DNA from: a virus
Lineage: Duplodnaviria; Heunggongvirae; Uroviricota; Caudoviricetes
Virus record (IMG/VR): IMGVR_UViG_2909246061_000004
Direction: 5' to 3' (one strand)
DNA: 25,849 nucleotides
The position numbers and the translations under genes were made by a program. Each line of letters starts with the position of its first letter. The first letter of the stretch is position 1. Of the stretch, positions 3,233 through 25,849 are shown one piece after another. The notes under the pieces were generated by a model. The model saw only the letters and a list, made by a program, of their open reading frames with translations. It was not told where the DNA came from and did no database searches.

Positions 3233-4303
3233 ATGGCTAACGCCTGGCTCAGATTATGGCATGACATGCCAAATGACCCTAAGTGGCGAACAATTGCCAG
3301 GGTGTCAGGGCAGCCAATTGCAACAGTGATGGCAGTGTATATCCACCTCTTGGTGAGCGCGTCACGAAATGTCACGCGAGGTCACATTGATGTCACGACA
3401 GAAGATTTGGCAAGTGCGCTCGACGTGACAGAAGAGGTAATTGATTCAATTTTGCAGACGATGCAGGGGCGGGTACTTGATAGTGATTTAATCACTGGAT
3501 GGGAAAAACGCCAGGTGCTTAAAGAGGACAACGGCAATATTTCGCAAACCGCAAAATCTCCTGCAGAGCGCAAGAGGGCGCAGCGAGAGAGGGAAAGAAA
3601 GCGGGAACAAAATGGCGATTGTCACGGCGCGTCACGAAATGTCACGCACATGTCACGACGAGTCACGACAGATAAAGATACAGATAAAGATACAGATCAA
3701 GAAGATCAAAACACTATGGTCCATGGCGTAAAAAACGCCACGAACCAGGCAGGGGATGTTCAGACCGTCAATCTTGGTCAGCCAGCAGGCACGACACCGG
3801 AAGCCGATTCAGCGTATGCGCTGAAAGCCGATTCGGGCGCTGTGCAGCAGGTGATGACCGCAAGGCCGGAGCAATCACACCAACTGCAGCAGCCCGAAGC
3901 CGATTCCGCCATTCAGCGGGAAGCCTATCCGGTAGTCCCGGAAAACACCGGGCAGTCTGTGGGACGAGTGGATTATCCGGATGTGTTCGAACAGGTCTGG
4001 CGGGAGTACCCGTTGCGTGCCGGAGCAAACCCGAAGAAATCCGCTTTCAGTGCCTGGAAGGCCAGATTACGCGAGGGGGTGCCACCAGAGGCCATGCTGG
4101 ATGGCGTGAGGCGTTACGCAAGATACTTGGCGGCTACCGGGAAAACGGGAACGGAATTTGTTCAGCGAGCGACGACGTTTTTTGGACCGGACCGGAATTT
4201 TGAGAACCCCTGGTTGCTCCCGGTAAGCGGCACGAACAACCAGCGTTGTGTGAATCATATTTCTGAACCGGATAACGAAATTCCGCCGGGCTTCAGGGGG
4301 TAA
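3233..4303 (+). CDS. Phage replication initiation protein (O-like) with iterons inside its coding sequence
   Basis: ATG at 3233 with AGAGGTG RBS; N-terminus MANAWLRLWHDMPNDPKWRTIARVSG typical of prophage replication proteins; phased GTCACG repeats inside the gene. Confidence 0.55.
   Translation: MANAWLRLWHDMPNDPKWRTIARVSGQPIATVMAVYIHLLVSASRNVTRGHIDVTTEDLASALDVTEEVIDSILQTMQGRVLDSDLITGWEKRQVLKEDNGNISQTAKSPAERKRAQRERERKREQNGDCHGASRNVTHMSRRVTTDKDTDKDTDQEDQNTMVHGVKNATNQAGDVQTVNLGQPAGTTPEADSAYALKADSGAVQQVMTARPEQSHQLQQPEADSAIQREAYPVVPENTGQSVGRVDYPDVFEQVWREYPLRAGANPKKSAFSAWKARLREGVPPEAMLDGVRRYARYLAATGKTGTEFVQRATTFFGPDRNFENPWLLPVSGTNNQRCVNHISEPDNEIPPGFRG
3361..3397 (+). repeat. Iteron cluster 1: four GTCAC(G/A) copies at ~10-bp spacing
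   Basis: GTCACGAAATGTCACGCGAGGTCACATTGATGTCACG read directly. Confidence 0.5.
3621..3666 (+). repeat. Iteron cluster 2: five GTCACG copies at exact 10-bp spacing, followed by a GATAAAGATACA tandem duplication
   Basis: GTCACGGCGCGTCACGAAATGTCACGCACATGTCACGACGAGTCACG read directly. Confidence 0.55.
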
Positions 4304-4343
4304 GTATTAATTTCTGGTCATGAGGTAATTTTCAGGAGGGCTT

Positions 4344-4766
4344 GTGGCAAAAGTTTTTACACAAGAAGAGCGGGAAAAAATTAAAGGGCAGGTTGTTGAA
4401 CTCGTACGCCAGAGTGGGCGCGAGACGTTACGACAACTGGAAACTAAAACTGGGGCAACAAGATATCTGATGAGCGTTCTGGCCAGAGAGCTGGTTGCCA
4501 GTGGCGATGTATACAACTCTGGTTACGGGTTATTCCCGTCTGAACAGGCGCGTAAGGACTGGCAAAATGCCCGTAAAAAGCTCTCAAGGGCAAAGCTGAA
4601 GAAACCATCTGCGGTTGATCCGGACCTTATCTGGTCATTACCTGATGGAGAAATACGTCGTTACGACAGGCGTCATAATATGATTTGTACTGAGTGTCGT
4701 AAAAGCGAAGTTATGCAGCGCATATTGTCGTTTTATCAGGGGGATGTTCGGTATTTATTGAAGTGA
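4344..4766 (+). CDS. Hypothetical protein (140 aa), GTG start
   Basis: GTG at 4344 with AGGAGG 5 nt upstream; no family recognised. Confidence 0.45.
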   Translation: MAKVFTQEEREKIKGQVVELVRQSGRETLRQLETKTGATRYLMSVLARELVASGDVYNSGYGLFPSEQARKDWQNARKKLSRAKLKKPSAVDPDLIWSLPDGEIRRYDRRHNMICTECRKSEVMQRILSFYQGDVRYLLK

Positions 4767-6050
4767 CGAGATTAAAGTGCATTAGTTCAGATGCAAATTG
4801 ACATTTTGTGGCACAGGGTAGAGCTAGCGTGGTTGTCCGCTTTGTGCCAACAGCGGACATTATGGAAGGTCAGAGTTAAAGATTAAAATGGGATGCTGTG
4901 TGTTTTCTCCAGGTTTTGCTCTATACCTTTCGGGATACTCCACCGACAGAATACGAAAATCAACATTATCAACGGCTCGAAGTGTCTAGATTATCCATGG
5001 CAATTCATGGGAAATCCCATCCAACGGCTTATGCTTCATGTTGCTTTTTGAGATCGCTTCTAGCATAGCTCCACTCAATAATGTTGTCGGGTCGTTGCTG
5101 ATCGAAAAGGATACGGGATTCAATACCATTACCTAAAAAGCTGGTATTCCCATCTACGTAAGAAGCTATCCCTTGTGAACCAACACGAAGAATATTTTCT
5201 AATGGCTGTTTTGTTCTTGCTGCATCGCTAAGGAGATATAAACCCGGGTACGTTTTGTTAGCACGGTGAAAAAAAAGTTCATTGTCAAAACACATGACGA
5301 TGATTATTTGTCCCGACATGAGATCGGAGAGCATTTCAGTTGGCAGATGCAAACTCATAAATGGTCGAGACAAAGGGTCAAAGAATGAATCATTTATATT
5401 CACAACAGGGCTTTTTATACCGAGACTATCCATCCATCCATTGAAGGCAACAAAGCCCATTTCAGAATCACGGTACATACCTAAGAACAAACATTCATCA
5501 ATAGTATCAATTGCCCAATTTTTTCCTCCGCGAATAATCTCCCACATTTTAACTAAGCGGTGGGTATAAAATTCAGACGGATGATCTATCTCATTGATTT
5601 TAACTTTAGACTGATGAAAGTTGTCAAAGCCCTCGCCAGTATTAATCGCCTCCAGAACATTCATGCCACGAATGATTTGCCTTTTTATGCGATTAAATTG
5701 CTTAACATCATTATCAGGCATATTGTTAATGAAGTTTTCTTCAAAGTGCGGACATTCTGAGATAACAGAAAATTCAGCAGCTTCATAAAGCTCATTATTC
5801 TTTTCACCTGTTTTAACTTCCACGAGCTGGAAGCCATCCAGTAGATTAAAGGTGACTAAATCTCCCACATGAACAAATGTGCTCATGTCAGAGACAATCG
5901 CTACGGAGTGTTTGTCCTGGTTGATAAGATCGGCTGCGACCATAGAATCAATTATGTTATCTTCTGATAGATTGTCATTGCTTGCATTAATAGGTAAACG
6001 CCGCAAACTAGAGTGTTCTTCATCAAGAATGCTCCAAATTATTGAGTCAA

Positions 6051-6074: not shown

Positions 6075-6578
6075 TTATTGATAGTGTTTTATGTTCAGAT
6101 AATGCCCGATGACTTTGTCATGCAGCTCCACCGATTTTGAGAACGACAGCGACTTCCGTCCCAGCCGTGCCAGGTGCTGCCTCAGATTCAGGTTATGCCG
6201 CTCAATTCGCTGCGTATATCGCTTGCTGATTACGTGCAGCTTTCCCTTCAGGCGGGATTCATACAGCGGCCAGCCATCCGTCATCCATATCACCACGTCA
6301 AAGGGTGACAGCAGGCTCATAAGACGCCCCAGCGTCGCCATAGTGCGTTCACCGAATACGTGCGCAACAACCGTCTTCCGGAGCCTGTCATACGCGTAAA
6401 ACAGCCAGCGCTGGCGCGATTTAGCCCCGACATAGCCCCACTGTTCGTCCATTTCCGCGCAGACGATGACGTCACTGCCCGGCTGTATGCGCGAGGTTAC
6501 CGACTGCGGCCTGAGTTTTTTAAATGGCGGAAAATCGTGTTGAGGCCAACGCCCATAATGCGGGCGGTTGCCCGGCAT
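6075..6578 (-). CDS. insB: IS1 InsB (transposase C-terminal frame)
   Basis: 167-aa ORF matching remembered IS1 InsB. Confidence 0.9.
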
Positions 6579-6772
6579 CCAACGCCATTCATGGCCATAT
6601 CAATGATTTTCTGGTGCGTACCGGGTTGAGAAGCGGTGTAAGTGAACTGCAGTTGCCATGTTTTACGGCAGTGAGAGCAGAGATAGCGCTGATGTCCGGC
6701 AGTGCTTTTGCCGTTACGCACCACCCCGTCAGTAGCTGAACAGGAGGGACAGCTGATAGAAACAGAAGCCAC
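6497..6772 (-). CDS. insA: IS1 InsA
   Basis: 91-aa [43 protein letters not shown]... matching remembered IS1 InsA. Confidence 0.9.
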
Positions 6773-6827
6773 TGGAGCACCTCAAAAACACCATCATACA
6801 CTAAATCAGTAAGTTGGCAGCATCACC

Positions 6828-6836
6828 TACAACGGC
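6828..6836. repeat. IS1 target-site duplication, right copy (TACAACGGC)
   Basis: Identical to 6051..6059. Confidence 0.85.
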
Positions 6837-7286
6837 GAAGAATAAGAATTTCAAATTTTTTTAAACTTATTTCATCAATACACTTTTCTTTATTTTCTTT
6901 ATCCTTGTTTCGATGGTGCTCTTTTTTTTCAGTTTTCAATCTTTTTATATCTCTCAGCCGAATAATAATCTCAAAAGATATGATTTTTTGTGAGTCTTTC
7001 CAATTTTTGAGACAGGTTTCATACTCTGCAAGAAAATCCTCATCATTGGAAGGTAGTTCTTGAATTGGATTCCCTCCCCTTATCATTTTGGCAAGTGCAT
7101 GCATTAAAGATACATAATGAGGTGATAAAATTGTCCAAAACTTCCTAAACGGTTTGTACTTTTCAAGAAAAGTTGACTCATCAGTATAATTCATCATAAC
7201 CAAACCTCATTCCTCTTATCTATTTTCCTCAAGGTATAAAATACCAGCCTTTTTTACATAATTATAGTTATAATATGAAGTCTCAT

Positions 7287-8156
7287 TCAGATATCTTCAT
7301 ACTGTACGTAAGAAATATTTGAGCCTCTGATACCATAATCTTCTAAACTGCCTGATTTTTTCTCACCTCTATATAAAGCAACTATCCATCGAGCATTTTC
7401 TTGGATGCTTTTATTTATTTCAGTAAAGTATTCACCGTCAACTTCGGCGAGCGAGTGGCCTAAAACGATGACCTCGTCCACATTTTTAAGCGATGAGAAA
7501 AAAACGTTTTCTTCTTTAATTATGTCTTCGCTGGGCTTGAATGTATTACCGAAGTATTCGTTTATTCTGTCGTATGCCTCTGCTATTCTTGTATCTTGAT
7601 CCGGTCCTATATATGGATTTAGTGACTTTTCCACCCTAAAACTATGACCAAGTATGAGATCGTCATCGTAACTACAATTGCCGTGAATATGTATGATTTG
7701 CTCGTCTGGAACGGCATAGATCTGCTGCAAGGTATTTGTATAATTAAATGAAAAATAGATGCTTTCTCTTGGTATGGGCGGGATGTATTGCTTAGGATTG
7801 TAAGCATCGGCTATGTTAATCCCTTTAACCCAATCAGCGAATTGCTCCTTCAAACGAGCTGACAGCATTTGTGTGATTTTATTTACTTCATATTGGTAAT
7901 CGTGATGATAAGCATCGCTCCAATCATCGGTATTGTATGAAGCCAAAAATATCTCACTGTTTTGAAGGATAAGCTCATAATCAATTTCACCTAAAGCATT
8001 TTCTAACTCATTCCACTCGTCCCCAGCAGGAATGTATTCTTCTATCGCGTCATATAGATCTTGGTCATTTTTTTCTACATACGACTTAAAGTGCTTGTAT
8101 CCTGTTGGTAAGCCATGACGCATGTCAAATCCATTTCCTATTATGTAAAGCCTCAT
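7287..8156 (-). CDS. AbiH-like abortive-infection protein (290 aa)
   Basis: Start at the ATG at 8156 with AAGGGA RBS 8 nt upstream; N-terminus MRLYIIGNGFDMRHGLPTGY carries the IGNGFD-x-HGL motif remembered for the AbiH family; AT-rich gene inside a prophage. Confidence 0.5.
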   Translation of the reverse strand: MRLYIIGNGFDMRHGLPTGYKHFKSYVEKNDQDLYDAIEEYIPAGDEWNELENALGEIDYELILQNSEIFLASYNTDDWSDAYHHDYQYEVNKITQMLSARLKEQFADWVKGINIADAYNPKQYIPPIPRESIYFSFNYTNTLQQIYAVPDEQIIHIHGNCSYDDDLILGHSFRVEKSLNPYIGPDQDTRIAEAYDRINEYFGNTFKPSEDIIKEENVFFSSLKNVDEVIVLGHSLAEVDGEYFTEINKSIQENARWIVALYRGEKKSGSLEDYGIRGSNISYVQYEDI

Positions 8157-8560: not shown

Positions 8561-8771
8561 TTTTATATTGGCGAGGTGACGTGAGTTAAGTAGAATTGCT
8601 GCGGGTGCTTGAGGCTATCTGCCTCAGGCATGAACACCAAAGGCAGATAGAGAAAAGCCCCAGTTAACATTACGCGTCCTGCAAGACGCTTAACATTAAT
8701 CTGAGGCCAATTTCATGCTAGACACATGTAGGTTAGCCTCTTACGTGCCGAAAGGCAAGGAGAAGCAGGCT

Positions 8772-8927
8772 ATGAAGCAGCAAAAGGCGATGTTAATCGC
8801 CCTGATCGTCATCTGTTTAACCGTCATAGTGACGGCACTGGTAACGAGGAAAGACCTCTGCGAGGTACGAATCCGAACCGGCCAGACGGAGGTCGCTGTC
8901 TTCACAGCTTACGAACCTGAGGAGTAA
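8772..8927 (+). CDS. hokD: Hok-family type I toxin (51 aa), HokD/RelF-like
   Basis: MKQQKAMLIALIVICLTVIVTALVTRKDLCEVRIRTGQTEVAVFTAYEPEE matches remembered HokD; AAGGAG RBS; structured leader upstream and terminator downstream. Confidence 0.85.
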   Translation: MKQQKAMLIALIVICLTVIVTALVTRKDLCEVRIRTGQTEVAVFTAYEPEE

Positions 8928-8997
8928 GAGACCAGGCGAGGGAGAAATCCCTCGCCACCTCTGATGTGTCAGGCATCCTCAATGCACCCGCACTTAA

Positions 8998-9665: not shown

Positions 9666-10715
9666 GTGCGGGTATTACTTCGACCTGTTCTGGTACCGGA
9701 ACTCGGGCTGGTGGTCGTTAAGCCGGGCCGTGAATCCATGCCGGTATTCCACAATACCCGGGTACTGGTGGAGCCGGAACCGAAAAGCATGCGTAATCTG
9801 CCGTCCGGGGTCGTTCCTGCCGTTCGCCAGCCGCTGGTGGAAGACAAAACATTGCTGCCGTTTTTCAGTAACGCACGGGTAATTCGTGCTGCTGGTGGTG
9901 CTGGTGCATTGTCTGACTGGCTGTTGCGCCATATTAAATCCTGCCAGTGGCCACACGGCGATTATCATCACAGCGAAACCGTTATTCACCGATATGGTAC
10001 CGGCGCAATGGTGTTGTGCTGGCACTGCGACAACCAGCTGCGTGACCAGACATCCGAATCACTCGAGCAACTTGCTCATCAAAACCTGTCAGCATGGATG
10101 ATTGACGTCATCGGTCACGCAATAAGCGGTACGCAGGAGCGTGAATTATCTCTGGCTGAATTATCCTGGTGGGCGGTCCGCAATCAGCTGGCGGACGCGC
10201 TACCGGAAGCGGTATTACGTCGCTCGCTGGGATTACCAGCGGAAAAAATCTGCTCGGTGTACCGCGAAAGCGACATCGTACCGGGAGAGCAGACCGCCAC
10301 CAGCATATTGAAACAGCGCACAAAAAATCTTGCACCGTTGCCTCACGCCCACCAGCAACAAAACCCATCACAGGAAAAGACGGTGGTAAGCATCACCGTT
10401 GATCCAGAGTCTCCGGAATCTTTCATGAAGCTGCCTAAACGTCACCGGTGGGTTAAGGAGAAATACACACGCTGGGTTAAGACACAGCCGTGTGCTTGCT
10501 GCGGTATGCCAGCCGACGATCCGCATCATCTGATTGGTCACGGGCAGGGCGGAATGGGAACCAAAGCACATGATCTCTTTGTTTTGCCTTTGTGCAGAAA
10601 GCATCACGACGAGTTGCATACGGATACCGTGGCATTTGAAGAGAAGTATGGCTCCCAACTGGAGCTGATTTTTCGATTTATCGATCGCGCGCTGGCAATT
10701 GGTGTGCTGGCCTAA
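9666..10715 (+). CDS. DUF968-type nin-region protein (YdfU-like, 349 aa), GTG start
   Basis: GGAGG RBS before the GTG at 9666; C-terminal Cys/His cluster ([18 protein letters not shown]...CRKHHDELH) typical of DUF968; same length as remembered YdfU. Confidence 0.55.
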
Positions 10716-10732
10716 TTTTGTGGAGTAAGTTG

Positions 10733-11110
10733 ATGCGTGATATTCAGATGGTTCTTGAGCGTTGGGGGGCATGGGCGGCTAATAATCATGAAGATGTGAC
10801 CTGGTCGTCCATTGCCGCCGGTTTTAAGGGATTAATTCCTTCAAAAGTAAGATCTCGTCCGCAATGCTGTGACGATGACGCGATGATCATTTGTGAATGT
10901 ATGGCTCGCCTGAAAAAAAACAACAGCGATTTACATGATTTATTGGTGGACTATTATGTCGGCGGCATGACTTTTATGGCGCTTGCACATAAGCATGGGC
11001 GATCTGATTGTTGGGTTGGCAGGATGCTCCAGAAAGCTGAGGGCGTAGTGGAGGGCATGCTGATGGTGTTGGATCTCCGATTGGAGATGGATGCTGATTG
11101 TTCGAAATAA
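10733..11110 (+). CDS. Late-gene antiterminator Q (phage 82/21-type, QuuD-like)
   Basis: [31 protein letters not shown]... matches the remembered Q-family N-terminus; located immediately before a terminator and the lysis region. Confidence 0.7.
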
Positions 11111-11122
11111 TTAAAGGAAAAG

Positions 11123-11151
11123 TTGCTGTCTGATTTTCATTAGTCTAACAT
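11123..11151 (+). promoter_or_regulatory. Candidate late promoter pR' (TTGCTG-N17-TAACAT)
   Basis: Sigma70-like hexamers between the Q stop and the downstream terminator; positional analogy to lambda pR'. Confidence 0.2.
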
Positions 11152-11210
11152 TTTAAATGTTGGAATCGCAACGTAGTTATTATCATATAACAGCTTGTTT
11201 CCTGATTTAG

Positions 11211-11237
11211 CCAGCCTCCCCAAAGGCTGGTTTTTTT
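11211..11237 (+). terminator. Rho-independent terminator, likely tR' (target of Q antitermination)
   Basis: CCAGCCT-CCCCAA-AGGCTGG hairpin followed by TTTTTTT, about 100 bp after the Q stop. Confidence 0.5.
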
Positions 11238-11265
11238 CTAATAAGTATCATTTCGGGTGGGGATT

Positions 11266-11790
11266 TTATTGTTTAACCCATAATAGTTCATTGACATTGA
11301 ATCCCAACTTTTGAGCGGTACGCACATAGTCTGCTTTTACATTATCTGGAATAGTTTGGGTCCTTGCCAGAATCCATAGGTATTCTCTGTTCGGACCACT
11401 GACAAGAGCATACTTATACTCATCATCCAGTTTGATTACATTATAGCCACCATAGAAGGGGCCAAAAAACGAAACTTTCAACGCTGCAGTTTTAGTATCT
11501 CCAGTAAAGTATGCTTTACCTTCGCTCTCGCTCCATTTGTTTTTCGTTGGATCGTATCCACGGTTAAGTACGCGAATCCCTCCGTCGTTCCGTTTTTCAT
11601 AAGTAGCGCTGACCTGTTCCAGACCACGTTCGAACCAGTTCTCGAGGCGAGCTATTTCATACCATTTTCCGAGGTAGCGGTTGGCGTCAAAATTTGTAAT
11701 CGGCTGCACACCTTTAGGTGGTGTCGGGGCCTTACATGCTATAAGAGTGAAAGAGAGTGCAATGCCAGTCAACACAGGCCATAACTTCAT
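11266..11790 (-). CDS. blc: Outer-membrane lipocalin Blc-like lipoprotein (cargo gene)
   Basis: Signal peptide with lipobox LIAC, then NFDANRYLGKWYEIARLENWFERGLE and SFFGPFYGGYNVI motifs matching remembered E. coli Blc. Confidence 0.7.
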   Translation of the reverse strand: MKLWPVLTGIALSFTLIACKAPTPPKGVQPITNFDANRYLGKWYEIARLENWFERGLEQVSATYEKRNDGGIRVLNRGYDPTKNKWSESEGKAYFTGDTKTAALKVSFFGPFYGGYNVIKLDDEYKYALVSGPNREYLWILARTQTIPDNVKADYVRTAQKLGFNVNELLWVKQ

Positions 11791-11982: not shown

Positions 11983-12942
11983 ATGATAAAAAAACCTGTG
12001 ATTGGGATCAGCGGTTGTTTGGGCGGTTCTGCTGTTCGTTTTGATGGTGGTCACAAAAGAGATGACTTTTTAATGGACAAATTAGTGGAATGGGTAACAT
12101 TCAGACCAGTATGTCCGGAAATGGCTATAGGGCTGCCAGTTCCGCGTCCTGCTCTACGACTTGTGCGCTCGAAGCAAGGAAATATACGGATGTGTTTCAG
12201 CCACGACCAGAATGAGGATGTGACAGAGAGAATGACAGAGTTTAGTCGTTCTTATATGGACAAATTAAAGGATGTATCGGGGTTTGTGGTTTGTGCTAAA
12301 TCTCCCAGCTGTGGCATGGAGCGCGTGCGTGTCTATGATGAAAATGGTAATCGAGGTCGTAAAGATGGAGTGGGACTATTTACGAGCACTTTGATGGAAA
12401 AGTTTTCCTGGCTACCGGTTGAAGAGGATGGGCGATTACATGATCCAGTGCTTCGTGAGAATTTTATTGAAAGAGTTTTTGCTTTGCATGAGCTCAATCA
12501 CCTTTACAAGGAGAAATTATCAAGAAGAGAGTTATTAGCTTTTCATAGTCGTTATAAGCTTCAGTTGTTGGCGCATAGCCAGGCAGGCTATAAAGATATG
12601 GGACCATTTGTGGCTGCAATACACGAGTGGGCGGACCTTGAATCATACTTTGAGGTGTATCGTGATAATCTGATGGCGATTCTCAGAAAACCAGCATCAC
12701 GTAAAAATCACACGAATGTGCTGATGCATATACAGGGGTATTTTAGTAATTACTTAAGTACACGCCAGCGTAAAGAGTTGAGCGAGGTTATACTTAACTA
12801 TCGCTTTGGCACATTGCCTCTTCTTGCGCCGTTGACTCTGCTGAAGCATTATCTGGGTGAGTATCCTAATGATTACTTGCTTACACAGAATTACTTCGAT
12901 CCCTATCCGGAAGAACTGGCTCTAAGACTGATGGTGAATTAA
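11983..12942 (+). CDS. DUF523-DUF1722 two-domain protein (TudS/RudS-like putative thiouridine desulfidase)
   Basis: ATG with GGGGGAGG RBS; N-terminus IGISGCLGG..VRFDGGHK typical of DUF523, C-terminal half resembles YbgA-like DUF1722; domain call from memory. Confidence 0.5.
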   Translation: MIKKPVIGISGCLGGSAVRFDGGHKRDDFLMDKLVEWVTFRPVCPEMAIGLPVPRPALRLVRSKQGNIRMCFSHDQNEDVTERMTEFSRSYMDKLKDVSGFVVCAKSPSCGMERVRVYDENGNRGRKDGVGLFTSTLMEKFSWLPVEEDGRLHDPVLRENFIERVFALHELNHLYKEKLSRRELLAFHSRYKLQLLAHSQAGYKDMGPFVAAIHEWADLESYFEVYRDNLMAILRKPASRKNHTNVLMHIQGYFSNYLSTRQRKELSEVILNYRFGTLPLLAPLTLLKHYLGEYPNDYLLTQNYFDPYPEELALRLMVN

Positions 12943-13348
12943 CTGTATGCGATATCATCTGAAAGTGATGAGTTCCTGTATGCAGGATATTTACAATCGT
13001 AAAAACTACGCTATGATGCTCATAGTGTCAGTTTTTATAAAAATCCTGTTCACGCTAAAGAAAACATTGAGATGCAATTTAATGTTGGTAAACATACCAG
13101 CCCCAAAAGATTTTATTCAATCTGTTTTTATATGAAGATATTTCAAGTGAATATAAAGAGCATATAATATTATTATTGCACGCAGCTATTATAATATAAC
13201 AGATTAGTTTAATGATTTGTTTTTTGTGAGTTAAACACATGGTTTTATAGTTGTGATGCAATGAGATTTTCCTTATTGTTGAACTGGCGAATATTGATTT
13301 TCCACCTATACTTACCTGGTGTAACCCCAATGATATCAGGTGGATAAT

Positions 13349-14062
13349 ATGTCATACATATGTTCTATCATTTTGGTGTTGAACTCGTTTGGTGTCCGAA
13401 TTGGTAAAGAAGATATTTTGTTTAAAAAAGGAAATGCTGTCCTCATTGAATACAATTTAAAAGATCTTTTTTCGTCAAATACAGATCATCTAATGATCGT
13501 AGATGTTGAGGAGAAAACAGTTAATGATTTCTTTAAAAACTACACACTCTCACCTTTTTCTGTAAGAAGGTTTTATCCGTCATACTTGATAGTAGAATGT
13601 GAAGATTTTTCATTGTTAAAGAACTTGGTTGCATGCTTGAATTGTGATAGCAAAACCGTGGATGTAGTTAGAAATCAAATATCACTTGCATGTCTTGCTG
13701 TCTTATCTTCAGAGAAAATAGTGCAAAGTTTTTTGTTCGGAAGTCTTAATAGCTTAGGTTGTAAAGTTAAGGCTATTATTCACTCGGATATCTCAGCGTC
13801 ATGGAGACTTTGTGATATATCTTCAAGATTATATATGAGCGAGAGTTTGTTAAAAAGAAAATTAAAAGACGAAGGATTATCGTTTAGTAAATTAATTCTT
13901 GAAGAACGAATGATGATGGCGCAAAGATTATTGATCTACAGTAACCATACTGTCGGCAAGGTGGCGGGAATATGCGGGTATGACAATGCATCATATTTTG
14001 TAAGTGTTTTTAGAGGATATTTTGGTGTGCCTCCGCACCAATATTTATCAAGATTTTCTTAG
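13349..14062 (+). CDS. AraC/XylS-family transcriptional regulator, AppY/GadX/Rns-like
   Basis: ATG at 13349 with AGGTGG RBS; N-terminus MSYICSIILV resembles AppY; C-terminal double-HTH region (KVAGICGYDNASYFVSVFRGYFGVPPHQY); very AT-rich upstream region and AT-rich coding sequence. Confidence 0.7.
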   Translation: MSYICSIILVLNSFGVRIGKEDILFKKGNAVLIEYNLKDLFSSNTDHLMIVDVEEKTVNDFFKNYTLSPFSVRRFYPSYLIVECEDFSLLKNLVACLNCDSKTVDVVRNQISLACLAVLSSEKIVQSFLFGSLNSLGCKVKAIIHSDISASWRLCDISSRLYMSESLLKRKLKDEGLSFSKLILEERMMMAQRLLIYSNHTVGKVAGICGYDNASYFVSVFRGYFGVPPHQYLSRFS

Positions 14063-17232: not shown

Positions 17233-17527
17233 CATGTTTATAGTATTAGCATCAATTTCTCATCAGATGCTATTCAACAATACAAATTACCCATAAACCT
17301 CGTTTTTACGGGGTTTTGTTATATTTAAACATTACCGAATAGATATAAATCTCGATTGTCGATGGTATTGGTTATGTGACAATACCTAGTCTTTCCGGTA
17401 TGCCTGAAGAGAATACAAACGACAGATTATGTAAGGGAAACGCGCTGAAACTTTCACTCTTTCATGCTGAGTGATTTGACGTTATATTTTTAGCCGCAAG
17501 TGAAGAGCAAACGAATGGAGCGACAAA

Positions 17528-18112: not shown

Positions 18113-18296
18113 CGCGGAAAAAGGCTAGTTTTTGCATTTCCATGGCGGCGGCAGCATGTTTGGTAATTTATTGATAATTAAAAGTTATTTCTCTTTTCAC
18201 CTGTACAATATTTTTTTCTCCCTGTCATTAGACCAGTTTGCAATTAATTGAAATATATAAATAAACATGATTTTCACCTGCCAGATGGAGTTGCTT

Positions 18297-18824
18297 ATGT
18301 CAAATGTGAGCGGGATCGGTGATGCTTATTACTGGAGTGTTTTTAAAATCGCTGAGGCCTTTGGGCTTCACCGGGACACAGTAAAAAAACGGCTCCTCGC
18401 GGCCAACACTCCTGTGGCTGCGACTATCAGGGGGAACCCCGTTTACGCCCTGCAGCATGTCGGGCCAGCCCTGTTTAGTGTGAAGCATGAGGCAGCAGAC
18501 TCTGTTCATGATCCATCCCGTATGGAGCCGAAAGAGAGAAAGGACTGGTACCAATCTGAAAATGAAAGGATCAAGCTGGAAAAGGAGCAGCGAAAACTCA
18601 TCCCCGTTGATGAAGTAGTCATCGTCTATTCGTCCATGAGAAAGGCTGTCGTCCAGGTTCTGGAGACAATTCCGGATGTTCTTGAACGCGATTGCGCCCT
18701 GACTCCTCAGGCCGTCGGCGTTGTACAGCAGGCCATTGATGACCTGCGATACACTCTTCAGGAAAAATCCTACGAGGCTTGTGCTGCTGAATTAATTCCT
18801 GATGAGGAAGGAGAGAGTCTCTAG
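18297..18824 (+). CDS. Terminase small subunit (Nu1-like)
   Basis: Start at the ATG at 18297 with GGAG RBS; N-terminal HTH-like segment (AEAFGLHRDTVKKRLL); immediately upstream of the large terminase gene. Confidence 0.6.
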   Translation: MSNVSGIGDAYYWSVFKIAEAFGLHRDTVKKRLLAANTPVAATIRGNPVYALQHVGPALFSVKHEAADSVHDPSRMEPKERKDWYQSENERIKLEKEQRKLIPVDEVVIVYSSMRKAVVQVLETIPDVLERDCALTPQAVGVVQQAIDDLRYTLQEKSYEACAAELIPDEEGESL

Positions 18825-18832
18825 GAGGAATA

Positions 18833-20383
18833 ATGGGTTTTTCATCAGCCCGAAATTTGGGAAGGGACATATCGGCAGGATTTTCCCCACCACGTCGCAT
18901 GCCGATTTCGGAGGCTGTTAAAAAATTCATGCGTGTTCCCAAGGGGGCTGGTAACTCGGTGCCATGGGATCCTGAACTGACACCCTACATCATTGAGCCC
19001 ATGAACTGCCTGGCATCGCGTGAATACGATGCGGTGATTTTTGTTGGTCCTGCGCGAACAGGGAAGACCATTGGTCTGATCGATGGATGGATTGTCTATA
19101 CCATCGTTTGCGATCCTTCGGACATGCTCGTTGTGCAGATGACCGAAGATAAGGCCCGCGAGCATTCTAAAAAGCGCCTCGACAGAACGTTCAGAAGCAG
19201 TGCGGCGGTAAAGAAAAGAATGAGTCCACGTCGTAACGACAATAATGTCCATGATAAGACGTTCAGGGATGGCTCGTTCCTTAAAATTGGTTGGCCCTCG
19301 GTAAACATTATGTCGTCGTCGGATTACCGGTTTGTCGCCTTAACCGATTACGACCGTTTTCCGGAGAATATCGACAGCGAGGGTGATGGTTTCTCCCTGG
19401 CCTCAAAACGTACCACCACATTTATGTCCGCCGGGATGACTCTGGTGGAGAGCTCGCCGGGACGTGACATCTGCGACAGCAAATGGCGACGTAAGTCGCC
19501 TCATGAAGCGCCACCGACGACTGGTATTCTTTCCCTTTACAATCGTGGTGACCGCCGCCGCTGGTACTGGTCATGTCCGCACTGCGGTGAATATTTTCAG
19601 CCAGCCATGGATGCCATGACCGGCTACCGTAATGAACCGGATCCCTTTAAAGCCAGTGAGGCGGCGCATCTACTTTGCCCGCACTGCAGCGGCATTATCA
19701 CTGCGGAGAAAAAGCGTGAGCTCAATAGTGCAGGAGTCTGGTTGCGTGAAGGTCAGGTCATTGATCGTAACGGCAACGTTTCCGGTGAACCGCGCCGCTC
19801 CCGTATCGCCAGTTTCTGGATGGAAGGGCCAGCTGCTGCGTATCAGACCTGGGCGCAACTGGTTTACAAATTACTGACTGCAGAACAGGAGTATGAAGCG
19901 ACAGGAAGCGAAGAAACACTCAGGGCGGTTATCAACACCGACTGGGGATTGCCTTATCTTCCTCGTGCCAGCATGGAGCAACGAAAAAGTGAACTGCTTG
20001 AGCAGCGGGCAGAGCTAGTTCCTTCCCGCAGTGTGCCGGATGGCGTTAATTTCCTTGTGGCGACAGTGGATGTGCAGGCGGGACGTCATCGCCGTTTTGT
20101 GGTTCAGGTAACGGGCTATGGCAGTCGTGGCGAACGCTGGATTATTGATCGTTACAACATCACGCAGTCATTGCGCAGTGACTGCGACGGGGAGAGCCAG
20201 CGAATTGATCCGGCCAGCTATCCGGAAGACTGGGATGTCCTGCTGACGGATGTTTTTCATAAAAGCTGGCCGCTGGCCTCCGATCCTTCTCAACAAATGC
20301 GACTGATGGCAATGGCGGTGGACTCCGGCGGTGAAGACGGGGTCACTGATACCGGCTGGCGAGGTTCTGATGGCAATTCTTGA
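18833..20383 (+). pseudogene. Terminase large subunit (lambda gpA-like), C-terminally truncated at ~516 codons
   Basis: AGGAGG RBS; CPHCG zinc-ribbon and gpA-like motifs; ends ...DSGGEDG where remembered lambda gpA (641 aa) continues; portal-like coding sequence follows in another frame. Confidence 0.65.
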
Positions 20384-20567
20384 TGATGTGATTGGCGTTT
20401 TTTCACCAGGATGGAAAGCGGCAAGGCTGCGTTCCCGTGCGGTGATCCAGGCTTATGAGGCCGTAAAAACGACGCGGACACACAAAGCCCGACGGGAGAA
20501 CCGAACTGCCGACCAGTTAAGCCAGTACGGGGCCGTGTCGTTACGTGAGCAGGCCCGTTATGGGTGA
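20370..20567 (+). pseudogene. Portal protein N-terminal fragment (about 65 codons)
   Basis: [52 protein letters not shown] resembles remembered lambda-family portal N-termini; frame ends after ~65 codons. Confidence 0.5.
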
Positions 20568-21966
20568 TCAGCAGCGGCAGCGATATCAGGTACAACTGAG
20601 TCTTCGCCAGAAATACCAGCAACAGCTGGAGCAGTTGAGGCGGGATAGTGAGCAGAAAGGGACATATAACACGGATGACTACAGAAAGGCCGAGCAGGCG
20701 CTGACGGAGAGCCTGAACCGACAACTGAATGAGAATCGCCGTTACTGGCAACAGCTTGAAGTTGTGCAGGGTAACTGGAAAAACGGAGTCCTGCGTGCAT
20801 TTCAGGATTTTACCGTGGATGCAGACAATACGGCAGGAACAGCAGAACAGGTGTTCTCATCAGCCTTCAGCAACATGGGAAATGGCCTGGCAACTTTTGT
20901 CACTACCGGCAAACTCAACTTCAAATCCTTCACCTCTTCGGTGCTGTCAGATATGGCGAAAATCCTGGCGCAGGCAACCATGATGAAATCGATAAAAGGG
21001 ATTGGCAGTGTAACCGCGCTGACAGACAATACGCAGGGGGCAACAGGTCTTGAGTTATACGAGGTGTATAACAACGGATATCCAACAGCGTATGGAAATA
21101 TCATTCACCTGAAAGGGATGACAGCCGTTGGCGAAGGTGAGTTACTCATCGGCTGGAGTGGTACAAGCGGTGCTCATGCTCCGGCATTTATTCGTTCACG
21201 ACGGGATACGACCGACGCAAACTGGTCGCCGTGGGCGCAGCTTTACACCTCGGCTCATCCTCCTGCAGAGTTTTATCCAGTCGGTGCACCAATCCCGTGG
21301 CCATCAGATACCGTTCCGTCTGGCTATGCCCTGATGCAGGGGCAGACTTTTGACAAATCTGCATACCCGAAACTTGCAGCGGCTTATCCGTCAGGCGTGA
21401 TCCCTGATATGCGTGGCTGGACGATTAAGGGCAAACCCGCCAGTGGTCGTGCCGTATTGTCTCAGGAACAGGACGGCATTAAATCGCACACCCACAGCGC
21501 CAGCGCATCCAGTACGGATTTGGGGACGAAAAACACATCGTCGTTTGATTACGGAACCAAATCCACGAATAACACCGGGGCGCATACCCATAGTATTAGC
21601 GGGACTGCAAATAGTGCCGGTGCGCACCAACACAAGAGTTCCGGTGCATTTGGTGGCACGAACACGAGCATTTTCCCTAATGGTTATACCGCGATTTCAA
21701 ATCTAAGCGCGGGGATTATGAGCACAACAAGCGGTAGTGGCCAGACTCGTAATGCAGGGAAGACATCATCAGATGGTGCTCATACCCACTCGCTGTCCGG
21801 CACTGCTGCAAGCGCAGGCGCACATGCACATACTGTCGGTATTGGTGCTCATACGCACTCCGTTGCGATTGGTTCACATGGACACACCATCACCGTTAAC
21901 GCTGCTGGTAACGCGGAAAACACCGTCAAAAACATCGCATTTAACTATATTGTGAGGCTTGCATAA
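20545..21966 (+). CDS. Side tail-fibre protein with a probably unrelated coiled-coil N-terminus (chimeric)
   Basis: C-terminal half carries repeated G-A-H-x-H-S/T motifs and matches remembered Stf C-terminal domains; starts 23 nt before the portal stub ends. Confidence 0.65.
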
Positions 21967-22541
21967 TGGCATTCAGAATGAGTGAACAACCACAGACCAT
22001 AAAAATTTATAATCTGCTGGCCGGAACTAATGAATTTATTGGTGAAGGTGACGCATATATTCCGCCTCATACAGGTCTGCCAGCAAACAGTACCGATATT
22101 GCACCGCCAGATATTCCGGCAGGCTTCGTGGCTGTTTTCAACAGTGATGAGGCATCGTGGCATCTCGTTGAAGATCATCGGGGAAAAACCGTCTATGACG
22201 TGGCTTCCGGCGACGCGTTATTTATTTCTGAACTCGGTCCGTTACCGGAAAATGTTACCTGGTTATCGCCGGAAGGGGAGTTTCAGAAGTGGAACGGCAC
22301 AGCCTGGGTGAAGGATACGGAAGCAGAAAAACTGTTCCGGATCCGGGAGGCGGAAGAAACAAAAAACAACCTGATGCAGGTAGCCAGTGAGCATATTGCG
22401 CCGCTTCAGGATGCTGCAGATCTGGAAATTGCAACGGAGGAAGAAATCTCGTTGCTGGAAGCATGGAAAAAGTATCGGGTATTGCTGAACCGTGTTGATA
22501 CGTCAACTGCACAGGATATTGAATGGCCAGCACTGCCGTAG
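21966..22541 (+). CDS. Tail-fibre assembly protein Tfa
   Basis: [43 protein letters not shown]... typical Tfa; its start overlaps the tail-fibre stop by 1 nt. Confidence 0.8.
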
Positions 22542-22638
22542 GGTAAAACATATAAATTCTATAATTAGATGTATCTTTCCATTTACGGCAAGGAAGGGGG
22601 CTTGGAACACGTAAAGCATCTCACACCGAGATTATTTT

Positions 22639-23229
22639 TTATATGTCAGGTGTCTGAAGTTTTGCTTTGGCTCTTAAAATGGTTTGCCGCGAGGTTTTGA
22701 ATTCCCGGGCAATGGCACTTATACTTACACCTGACTTAATTCGTTCGAATACCACCTGTTTCTGTTCTTCATTTAACACAGGTGGTCGACCAAAACGTTT
22801 CCCTGCGCCGCGGGCTCTTACTATCCCGGAATGAGTGCGTTCAAGTAAAAGGTCTCGTTCAAATTCAGCGACTGCTGAAATTACTTGCATCATCATTTTT
22901 CCTGTTGGACTGGTCAGGTCAATGCCACCCAATGCTAAGCAATGCACTCTGATACCTGTTTCGGTCAGTTGTTCCACTGTTTTCCTGATATCCATTGCAT
23001 TACAACCAAGGCGATCCAGTTTTGTCACAATCAATTGATCACCACATTTCAGGCGAGCAAGCAACCGGTTAAAACCAGGACGCTCACTGGTTGCTGCTGA
23101 GCCGCTAATGTGTTCTTCGATTATTTGCTGAGGTTTGATTTTAAAACCTGCACTTTCGATTTCCCGGCGTTGATTTTCGGTGGTCTGATCCAGCGTTGAT
23201 ATCCGACAGTAAGCAAAAATTCGAGACAT
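22639..23229 (-). CDS. Pin/Hin/Gin-family serine DNA invertase
   Basis: [20 protein letters not shown]... with catalytic serine motif and C-terminal HTH ([18 protein letters not shown]). Confidence 0.85.
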
Positions 23230-23546
23230 AGTGAGACTCTATTCGAAATTGGTGTTCATATCATAATGCATCTCAGAAAATAATTATGATTATTTTTGTG
23301 CATATTTGTATGTACACGTTCGAAAATAAACGAATGCGTATGCAACCCCGTAATTTTTGGTGAGACCCAAAATCGATTTTGTGAAAAATGGCTTTAACTC
23401 GGTTTGTTTTTCGAGTTCCGGGCGGGCTCAAGGAAGAAGAATAGTGTTGCGTGTTATTTTAACCAGATTTCAAGTTGTTTGGACGTGGAAAAGTGGAGCA
23501 AAATGTTGTTAAAGTGGAAAAATGATAAAAAAGTAAGTTTATTATA

Positions 23547-23813: not shown

Positions 23814-24565
23814 TGCGATATTGTATGTCTGATTCAGGATATGTTGACTTATACATCGGTTTTGTCTGGGTTATTGGATATGCCAATCCCTAATTTTATT
23901 AGGGCATGACTAAAAATGCTGAATATGATAAGGAGAGAAGTGATTATCAGTATGCTGTTCATATAGCCTCGAATTAGTAATGTGTTATATATGATATAGT
24001 TGACAATTTTTATCTTGGGTGTTTTTAAAGTTCGTAGATAAACATTGTCGTTTCAGGTATACAGGAATGCTAGCAGGTGGCAGCAAAAATCAGGCGGTTT
24101 ATGGCGCAAGCTGAAGCGGCAACTGCAAACTATCTTATGCAGAGACTCTACACGGATTGGGTTTAAAAGTATACATAGATAACAGTTTTTATCTGAAAAA
24201 GAAAAATATCAAGGTGATATAGCCTATATGCCTTTGATGCGGAGGAATGACTGTGATGGGAGTGATGTATCTGAATAGTTGAAAAAACGCAGACACGCCT
24301 TATGCAAGAACGTGCTGCGGTTGGCTGGTAAATTTTTCGATAGTGTGAGTATTGAATGATTTCCAGCCGTTCTTGATTTTACGCATAAATCCATGAAAAA
24401 ACTACTTATCTGTTGGGGAGTTTTTTTGGGGCATATATGGGACAGAAATAGGCCCCAGATAGACACTGAGATCGAACTTAGGATGCTTTTTAAAAAATGC
24501 AACTATCTGAAAAAACCTAGAAAACGCCAAGGAAACCACAGGATGGGAAAAAACACCTGTGAATT

Positions 24566-25849
24566 ATGGATTTCCAGTTATATTCGCTCGGCGCAGCGTT
24601 AGTGTTTCATGAAATATTTTTTCCTGAATCATCAACGGCAATGGCGTTAATTCTGGCATTGGGAACCTACGGTGCAGGTTATGTGGCGCGTATTGTCGGA
24701 GCATTTATTTTCGGCAAAATGGGCGACAGAATAGGGCGTAAAAAAGTGCTCTTTATTACCATCACCATGATGGGGATCTGTACCACCTTAATTGGTGTGT
24801 TACCGACCTATGCACAGATTGGTGTTTTTGCACTCATCTTGCTGGTGACGTTGCGTATTATTCAGGGGTTGGGTGCAGGTGCGGAAATTTCCGGTGCCGG
24901 TACGATGCTGGCGGAATATGCGCCAAAAGGTAAGCGCGGAATTATCTCCTCATTTGTGGCTATGGGAACTAACTGCGGAACCTTGAGCGCAACGGCAATC
25001 TGGGCCTTTATGTTCTTCATTCTCAGTAAAGAGGAACTGCTGGCGTGGGGATGGCGTATACCGTTCCTGGCGAGCGTTGTCGTGATGGTCTTTGCTATCT
25101 GGTTGCGTATGAATCTGAAAGAAAGCCCGGTCTTTGAGAAGGTTAACGACAGTAACCAACCGACAGCAAAACCTGCACCTGCTGGTAGCATGTTCCAGAG
25201 CAAATCCTTCTGGCTGGCAACAGGGCTGCGTTTTGGTCAGGCGGGTAACTCCGGGTTAATTCAGACTTTCCTTGCAGGCTATTTAGTGCAGACGTTATTG
25301 TTTAACAAAGCAATTCCAACAGATGCATTGATGATCAGTTCGATTCTCGGCTTTATGACCATTCCGTTCCTTGGTTGGTTATCCGATAAAATTGGTCGCC
25401 GGATCCCGTATATTATTATGAATACCTCCGCGATTGTGCTGGCATGGCCAATGCTTTCTATCATTGTAGATAAAAGCTATGCCCCGAGCACCATTATGGT
25501 TGCACTGATTGTGATTCATAACTGTGCGGTGCTGGGATTATTTGCTCTGGAAAACATTACCATGGCAGAAATGTTCGGCTGTAAAAACCGCTTTACCCGG
25601 ATGGCTATTTCTAAAGAAATTGGTGGTCTTATCGCTTCCGGTTTTGGTCCTATCCTGGCGGGTATTTTCTGCACCATGACGGAATCCTGGTATCCGATCG
25701 CCATTATGATCATGGCATATTCAGTGATTGGTTTAATCTCTGCGCTGAAAATGCCAGAGGTGAAAGACCGTGATTTAAGTGCGCTGGAAGACGCTGCGGA
25801 AGATCAACCGCGTGTTGTAAGAGCTGCGCAACCTTCCAGAAGTCTGTAA
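24566..25849 (+). pseudogene. ydfJ: MFS metabolite:H+ symporter YdfJ, 5'-truncated (first ~35 codons missing)
   Basis: 12-helix MFS-like sequence aligning to ProP-family transporters from about residue 37 (DFQLYSLG versus ProP WFDFGVYG); in-frame stop immediately upstream at 24560; complete C-terminus with stop at the window end. Confidence 0.7.

Follow-up and report, generated by a model that had tools for sequence, protein, structure and literature searches.

Three TA-joined deletion scars in the head and tail genes of a probable Qin-type prophage of Escherichia coli

The IMG/VR record IMGVR_UViG_2909246061_000004 (Duplodnaviria; Heunggongvirae; Uroviricota; Caudoviricetes), a stretch of 25,849 nt that we analysed as a whole and refer to as the window, contains a large terminase frame that stops early, a portal stub and a fibre-like open reading frame (ORF), each overlapping the next. 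Are these short genes native to the phage, or are they what is left of longer ones, and if so, how were the pieces joined? A first-pass annotation had read the interval 20290-20600 as carrying two deletion scars. Our analysis indicates with high confidence that the interval lies among the decayed morphogenesis genes of a lambdoid prophage, which occupies the Qin site (in ydfJ) of E. coli, and that three internal deletions have occurred there. The feature as such is ordinary, a case of routine prophage decay whose pieces are already annotated as pseudogenes; the only item of possible novelty may be a TA dinucleotide in the side tail fibre gene (stf) at which E. coli prophages have been broken again and again.

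The breakpoints were mapped by BLAST of the window against its relatives, which returned collinear, sharp-ended blocks, and by three-way alignments at the level of single bases. The intact gene order, a terminase of 699-700 aa followed by an adaptor of 70 aa and a portal of 502 aa, is found in mEp460, in mEp460_ev081 and in the allele of strain APEC O78. The last (NC_020163) occupies the same chromosomal site and carries the 699 aa terminase, the 70 aa gene, the 502 aa portal and, after it, the first part of a ClpP-type protease gene. Phage mEp460 (NC_019716) retains every gene as far as a tape measure of 1,021 aa and a side tail fibre, and mEp460_ev081 (LR597641; ev081 hereafter) has the same set plus an stf C-terminus of the window type, tfa, a serine recombinase gene and ydfK-like genes. 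The pieces present in the window all follow phage gene order and orientation, and they meet at three joins (J1-J3, Table 1). At J1, the loss of terminase codons 507-699 and adaptor codons 1-64 brought the terminase sequence ...CACTGA TA ATGCC together with ...CCCGGG TA CCGGCTGG near the end of the adaptor gene. J2 removed the portal from codon 65 onwards, the protease/capsid, head-tail and tail-tube genes and tape-measure codons 1-740, the parental sequences being ...GCCCGT TA CCTTG in the portal and ...GGTGGG TA TGGGTG in the tape measure. J3 took out about 9.05 kb (ev081 coordinates), beginning at tape-measure codon 892 and ending at stf codon 706, and joined ...GGCAGTG TA CTGGG to ...GGTCGGG TA ACCGCGC. 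The total loss amounts to about 18.5 kb of head and tail genes, and the microhomology at each join is just the dinucleotide TA. The comparison with intact lambdoid relatives and the inspection of the junctions for microhomology, both proposed in the first-pass annotation, thereby uphold its reading of the scars as deletions, with two amendments: there are three scars rather than two, the third lying within the ‘tail-fibre’ ORF and outside the interval it had marked, which covers J1 and J2; and the terminase does run into a portal stub, but J1 also took almost all of the small adaptor gene in between.

The remnant ORFs have nearly the geometry that was described from the sequence alone. The gpA-like frame does end after 516 codons, the last ten of which are read from the adaptor/portal region. 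It matches the 699 aa protein of APEC O78 at 502 of 506 residues up to residue 506 and diverges after ...GVTD. In Pfam the ATPase domain PF05876 (GpA_ATPase) is complete (2-247 of 247, 1.3e-80), and PF20454 (GpA_nuclease) is matched only over positions 1-156 of 294; what would make up a functional gpA-like terminase is therefore present as to the ATPase, and wanting as to the nuclease and the length of about 700 aa (516 versus 699-700 aa). The portal-like frame is indeed a different one and runs for about 65 codons, although its ATG at 20370 lies 14 nt, and not 13 nt, ahead of the last base of the terminase stop. All 64 native residues agree with the N-terminal end of the portal of mEp460 (502 aa), the stub closes with TGA at 20565-20567, no Pfam domain was detected in its 65 aa, and of a portal fold of about 500 aa only these first 64 residues remain. 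The third ORF, in the third frame, may start at GTG 20545, which is 23 nt ahead of the end of the portal stub, as had been noted. It consists of tape-measure residues 741-891 and the C-terminal 317 residues of the side tail fibre, in keeping with the earlier suspicion that its first ~150 residues derive from a tape measure: 20559-21012 is 99.1% identical in DNA to mEp460 gene H over 454 nt, and the suggested domain search returned PF09718 (Tape_meas_lam_C) at residues 76-150 (1.1e-22) and NCBIfam TIGR01541 at residues 6-157 (2.9e-42, above the family cut-off). The domain of a lambda-family tape measure is thus retained, but only codons 741-891 of a protein of about 1,021 aa in mEp460. The remainder of the ORF matches the Pfam Collar and Phage_fiber repeat domains, and 21010-21602 is 97.8% identical to ev081 stf. 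Since each piece is 96-99% identical in DNA to annotated phage genes, the pattern of overlapping ORFs does not result from chance.

The identity of the locus follows from its surroundings. The 4.4 kb around the interval are 100% identical in ten complete E. coli chromosomes, LR-27 among them, and with 10 occurrences in 5,426 complete genomes the allele is rare and essentially clonal. In LR-27 the identical locus is annotated, in order, as dicB, ydfA, hokD, ydfU, the Q antiterminator gene, essQ, ydfR, rrrQ, rzpQ, cspI and gnsB, followed by packaging genes, tfaQ, pinQ, ydfK and a truncated ydfJ. This is the gene set and order of Qin, and the segments shared with K-12 Qin are 95-99% identical in DNA. 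The right boundary is that of Qin as well: an 11-bp direct repeat, GAAATCCATAA, flanks K-12 Qin at both ends, and its complement occurs in the window at the start of the truncated ydfJ. The NCBI Prokaryotic Genome Annotation Pipeline (PGAP) already marks all three remnant genes as pseudogenes or incomplete, labelling the terminase and portal as lacking the C-terminus and the tape measure as lacking the N-terminus.

The stf side of J3, GGTCGGG/TA/ACCGCGCTGACAG (GGTCGGG/TA/ACCGCGC), is used far beyond this allele. The same base is joined to at least 16 different partners in E. coli prophages; independent prophages with late regions of lambda, mEp460 and Rac type are truncated at one base of stf, nearly always at TA (labels such as L032 and L131 in Table 1 and below denote the numbered prophage loci that were compared). 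When IMG/VR was scanned with the 29 nt that follow the join on its right, 100 loci came up, of which about 87 are intact (...CTTCAAAAGGTCGGG TA ACCGCGC...); the other 14 represent a dozen junction types, all at the same base, and metagenome contigs and further complete genomes supplied additional types. K-12 Qin and APEC O78 both cut stf at the window’s exact base, their left partners being terminase codon 3 and the protease gene, respectively. TA stands at the join in 14 of 15 parental partners, against a frequency of 3.2% of positions across these regions (p~1.5e-20). A reference could be matched to 15 partners, and every one of them maps to the same strand and to an upstream place in the phage gene order; these are accordingly deletions, with no inversions. 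In the collection scan the 12 distinct junction types are all out of frame except L040, with stops 2-32 codons upstream, and because most types are out of frame, selection at the protein level does not explain the fixed stf end. We found no description of this recurrent breakpoint in the searchable literature. No second copy of the stf site occurs in any of about 115 loci, and a search of IMG/VR for other partners of the right-hand site of J2 yielded none. K-12 Rac was set aside as a further case: its tape-measure fragment has no DNA match in the reference phages that would place a junction, and K-12 stfR is without the exact site.

The right-hand stf segment is present in about 1,240 complete genomes and the intact site in about 685, a gap that is inflated by clonal inheritance; a large share of the genomes with the segment thus appears to be truncated or diverged at the site. 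A query of complete genomes with full-length stf was uninformative on truncation points, the best match per genome usually being another prophage. An exchange of fibre ends as cassettes was considered as a source of the junctions and rejected: 92 of 93 loci with the left half continue into the normal right half, and the exception, L112, is a deletion. In that locus (~9171) the same TA links the left half of the stf site (…GGTCGGG TA) with the 3' part of tfa, a reciprocal-type event that deleted the fibre tip and most of tfa. The mosaic boundary between the stf genes of mEp460 and ev081 sits elsewhere than the hot spot.

Other sites in the late genes are also reused, and not every join is at TA. 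The right-hand site of J1 in the adaptor/portal region, CCCGGG/TA/CCGG, is joined to a different terminase position in L131, and a site in the terminator loop after the major tail gene serves as left partner in L062 and as right partner in L131. At the terminase position corresponding to window 20219, L132 joins the TA to the stf site, and one base away L134 has a join at CT, to gpJ. TG, GGAA, CT and A were the other dinucleotides or overlaps seen, and away from the stf site TA occurs in four of eight joins (p~6e-5). The Qin allele of strain SCU-115 (L133:4563) has the portal fused in frame to a more distal stf position with a 1-nt overlap, not at the hot spot, and the product is annotated as a 632 aa ‘portal protein’. 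Within the window itself, about 590 bp with a DUF1398 (ydfO-like) gene are missing at 17362-17369 relative to APEC O78, and similarly relative to K-12; the 8-nt overlap of the flanking alignments suggests a further short-homology deletion.

Table 1. Positions of the joins, remnant genes, neighbouring features and recurrent breakpoints (window coordinates unless a locus or phage is named)
Feature	Position	Strand	Remarks
Small terminase subunit gene, DUF1441 type, apparently intact	18267..18824	+	Pfam DUF1441 4.6e-44; PGAP start = window 18297
Large terminase pseudogene	18833..20383	+	516 aa; 506 native codons (to 20351), then 10 foreign out-of-frame codons
J1	20350..20351		TA in both parents; 771 bp missing relative to APEC O78
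End of adaptor (W-like head-tail) gene	20352..20370	+	Last six codons and stop; = APEC O78 locus 8924-8942
Portal stub	20370..20567	+	64 native codons, one altered codon, stop; PGAP: phage portal protein
J2	20559..20560		TA in both parents; mEp460 3019-20 joined to 11706-07; 8.69 kb missing
Tape-measure/side-tail-fibre in-frame fusion ORF	20545..21966	+	GTG 20545 or ATG 20560; 473 aa from GTG 20545
J3	21011..21012		TA in both parents; mEp460 12158-59 joined to stf codon 707 (ev081 21211-12)
tfaQ tail-fibre assembly gene, intact	21966..22541	+	Pfam Caudo_TAP 3.6e-43; annotated tfaQ
pinQ small serine recombinase gene, intact	22639..23229	-	Pfam Resolvase and HTH_7; annotated pinQ
Qin attachment core TTATGGATTTC	24564..24574		Right prophage boundary, start of truncated ydfJ; matches K-12 Qin repeat
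Hot-spot junction loci	window 21011-21012; L016, L022, L023, L029, L032, L040, L055, L058, L062, L071, L106, L125, L128, L132; K-12 L005 ~7841		
Lambda-type partners	Nu1 695, A 717, A 953, B 3909, E 6319, E 6986, Z 8062, K/I 15275		
mEp460-type partners	terminase (window 20219), portal 3293, protease 5117, gpL 13439, tape measure 12157, end of lom		
mEp460-type partner, terminator after major tail gene	8759		
Rac-type partner	ynaK/ydaY region		
Other reused TA sites in late genes	L131:3451-3452, 3799-3800; L132:2320-2321; L134:2319-2320		

What, then, might fix the breakpoint? The ancestor was similar to ev081, with the order DUF1441 small terminase, gpA-like terminase, adaptor, portal, ClpP-protease/capsid, tail genes, tape measure, tip genes, lom, stf, tfa and pin, and three separate deletions (0.77, 8.7 and ~9.05 kb) joined its collinear pieces at TA dinucleotides. 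The joins would have been made by homology-independent (2-bp) break-and-join or by copy-choice rather than by a dedicated recombinase, and the stf end of J3 would be a fragile site with the TA in the loop of a small G+C hairpin. We infer, more generally, a structure-prone fragile site for which any TA can serve as partner through a 2-bp overlap; as the end point is so exact, there is still room for a specific enzyme. In foldings with DNA parameters, the TA of all five reused sites falls in the predicted loop of a small G+C-stemmed hairpin, compared with 40% of background TAs; the ordinary partners do not differ from background TAs in this respect. A number of observations weigh against this account. 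The support from hairpin loops is post hoc (p~0.01), plain microhomology deletion does not predict TA in 14 of 15 stf partners, and the crossover stays at TA despite a longer adjacent match, such as GTCGGnTA in L032, so that some sequence- or structure-specific step is needed beyond plain microhomology. Furthermore, none of the sequenced phages matches the parent exactly (identity to mEp460 is ~79% in the 5' terminase region and 96-99% in the portal and tape-measure pieces), and the deletion sizes are estimates from relatives of an ancestor that was itself mosaic.

A bolder proposal can be built on the same data, and we regard it as possible but doubtful: the TA in GGTCGGG/TA/ACCGCGC and a few further TAs in hairpin loops of lambdoid late genes would be the targets of an unrecognised break-and-join activity, specific for sequence or structure and with a 2-bp TA core, which repeatedly excises head and tail genes as a main, quasi-programmed way in which E. 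coli disarms lambdoid prophages. Such an activity may be a recombinase, a nuclease plus ligation, or a structure that stalls the replication fork. Compared with all 1,224 TAs of the lambda and mEp460 late regions, the partner sites show a weak preference only (C at -4, p=0.006 uncorrected), and a strong flank consensus was rejected, since only this weak enrichment persisted after correction for TA context. The left flank that was kept tends, to a modest degree, to match the reverse complement of ACCGCGC, the right flank that was kept (p=0.001); the lost flanks show the same tendency (p=0.005). An integrase acting at a secondary attachment site was discarded as a candidate, the Qin core being unrelated to the stf site.

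The enzyme most readily suggested, by analogy with the fibre switches of Mu, P1 and e14, is a site-specific serine-type recombinase, PinQ, PinR or another. The stf site would then serve as a crossover site, genuine or quasi, with TA as its 2-bp core, and would recombine with quasi-sites of the same core. The reuse of one exact breakpoint with so many partners, the common central dinucleotide and the weak palindromy of the partner flanks to the retained arm all have the look of quasi-site recombination, and pinQ lies only 1.6 kb downstream of the stf site and is reported to be active in vivo (PMC12529663). Several findings nevertheless speak against it. Nothing resembling the pix/gix-like sequences AAACCnnGGTTT or TTCTCCCAAACC occurs at or near stf or pin, motif matches being at chance level, whereas e14 shows clear 21-nt sites, and it is on canonical sites that PinQ is reported to act: a 2025 paper describes inversion of the e14 P segment by PinQ in trans at such sites and describes no Qin site (PMC12529663). 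On inspection, the stf site has a dyad symmetry of just 5/12, rather than symmetric half-sites of ~12 bp, and there is no inverted partner site in 20950-22700 or in about 115 loci. From a palindromic TA core one would expect inversions alongside deletions, yet the matched partners are deletions without exception. The surroundings of pinQ (22542-22638 and 23230-23546), and the window, have neither a pix/gix-like site nor an alternative fibre cassette; an invertible segment of the Din-family G, C or P type, with an inverted pair of crossover sites of AAACCnnGGTTT core flanking alternative cassettes, is thus not present. Finally, no pin gene was found in the examined sequence of L131, L032 and L083, although a recombinase may act in trans. 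PinQ itself is 38% identical to PinE and, judged by E-value, is about as close to the gamma-delta/Tn3 resolvases as to Gin. Taken together, we consider a serine recombinase unlikely to have made the TA joins.

A different kind of explanation would place the cause in the product rather than in the DNA: the tape-measure/Stf chimera and TfaQ could be a selected module, kept as a fibre-like protein that is useful to the host, for instance by blocking receptors against other phages. J3 is fused in frame, tfaQ and pinQ are intact, and in K-12 StfQ, too, the fusion is in frame, with its start at the ATG of the terminase (ATGAATATA/ACC). There is also a precedent, as a chimeric Stf from e14 is reported to block adsorption of T2 (PMC12529663). 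We nevertheless judge domestication of this kind to be quite improbable: the in-frame condition is the exception among the junction types of the collection scan, where L040 alone keeps the frame, and the window allele is both rare and essentially clonal.

It could further be asked whether the pieces were spliced by recombination between different prophages rather than by deletions in one ancestor. The uneven identity to mEp460, 79% in the terminase against 96-99% in the portal and tape measure, could be read in this way, but at the same site the APEC O78 allele runs unbroken from the same terminase across adaptor and portal as far as the protease gene and shares the mosaic pattern, so the mosaic predates the deletions. 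Because APEC O78 shows this pattern with continuous genes, the ancestor was already mosaic and the joins are deletions, not splices between phages; with all pieces in phage gene order and orientation, inter-prophage splicing is very unlikely. That the short terminase and portal are native, or the joins sequencing artefacts, is scarcely credible, since intact relatives hold full-length homologues of both genes, the nuclease domain is cut in half, identical joins recur in ten independently sequenced complete genomes, and other Qin alleles show different deletions of the same ancestor.

Three deletions in a lambdoid prophage therefore remain our reading of the interval. As half of the nuclease domain, the portal, the capsid, the tail tube and the tip genes are gone, neither packaging nor particle building can take place, and the prophage would be locked in, unable to make virions. 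The leftover ORFs, overlapping start to stop, would be transcribed together within the late operon and may be translated together as well. At 6 nt upstream of ATG 20560 there is a weak Shine-Dalgarno-like CAGG, and the ORFs could be translated from the late transcript; scans for promoters and terminators gave nothing above chance that bears on their expression. No function is required to explain them.

What the feature records is the loss of particle formation in one Qin-type prophage. If a specific activity or a fragile structure fixes the stf breakpoint, the domestication of prophages would be partly directed and not random, and the site, if this holds true, would provide a simple assay for directed prophage decay.

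The small terminase gene carries the DUF1441 family label in LR-27 and has the position of the small terminase of mEp460, and the 70 aa adaptor gene whose end is left in the window is annotated at 8730-8942 in the APEC O78 locus. Beyond pinQ, a small cold-shock-type gene and an MFS transporter gene follow downstream. Elsewhere in the prophage there are two copies of IS3, at window 6163-7325 and 12258-13420 (from the LR-27 locus, offset 1801), the second of which splits an AraC-family/HTH gene into fragments at about 12088-12192 and 13451-14062. The stretch from the replication genes to the first IS3 holds an AbiH-family abortive-infection gene and, beside it, a hypothetical gene of 463 aa (window 3284-5673, minus strand); they look like defence cargo, which is not at this position in K-12 Qin. 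Downstream of the Q antiterminator gene, lipocalin-family and YbgA-family genes at window 10005-11681 resemble late-region cargo of the moron type.

Of known elements, K-12 Qin (nohA'-'stfQ-tfaQ-pinQ-ydfK-ydfJ') has the same chromosomal site, attachment core, early, lysis and cold-shock genes and stf breakpoint base, and its right-hand module is 99.2% identical from window 21011 to the end. The two alleles nevertheless differ in what was lost: K-12 Qin has a lambda-type Nu1 homologue (nohA) with terminase codon 3 joined directly to stf in a single join, whereas the window allele has DUF1441/gpA-type packaging genes, keeps fragments of terminase, portal and tape measure, and has three joins. 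The APEC O78 allele shares the locus, a terminase region that is 96-99% identical and the stf breakpoint, but retains the full terminase, adaptor and portal, with one join between the ClpP-protease gene and stf. Among phages, mEp460 and ev081 have the same gene order; the window’s portal stub (100%, protein) and tape-measure fragment (99%, DNA) are matched in mEp460, and its stf C-terminus, tfa, pin and ydfK-like genes (98-99%) in ev081. Both phages differ in being complete: they measure about 44.5-45.9 kb and lack none of the head and tail genes. In the 5' terminase region the identity to mEp460 is ~79%. Packaging and portal fragments left by internal deletions are also found as terminase and portal pseudogenes in other cryptic prophages of K-12, e14 and DLP12 (beeE and jayE among the genes listed), at different loci and from different phage lineages.

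Two classes of recombination resemble the events at the stf site. Cin is said to recombine with quasi-cix sites (work of Iida and Hiestand-Nauer in the 1980s), and in such reactions one fixed site likewise has many partners that share a 2-bp central dinucleotide with weak flank similarity; the stf site differs in having no canonical invertase site, no inversions and a pin gene that is not in cis in every case. Hot spots of deletion between short homologies, located at palindromes or where replication is arrested, and reportedly described by Glickman and Ripley in 1984 and by Bierne, Ehrlich and Michel in 1991, are analogous in being one-sided, in giving only deletions, and in involving very short repeats with complementary sequences flanking the end points. 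The stf site is set apart from these by spans of about 0.8-20 kb, by the use of the same dinucleotide as the repeat, and by an end point that is exact to the base.

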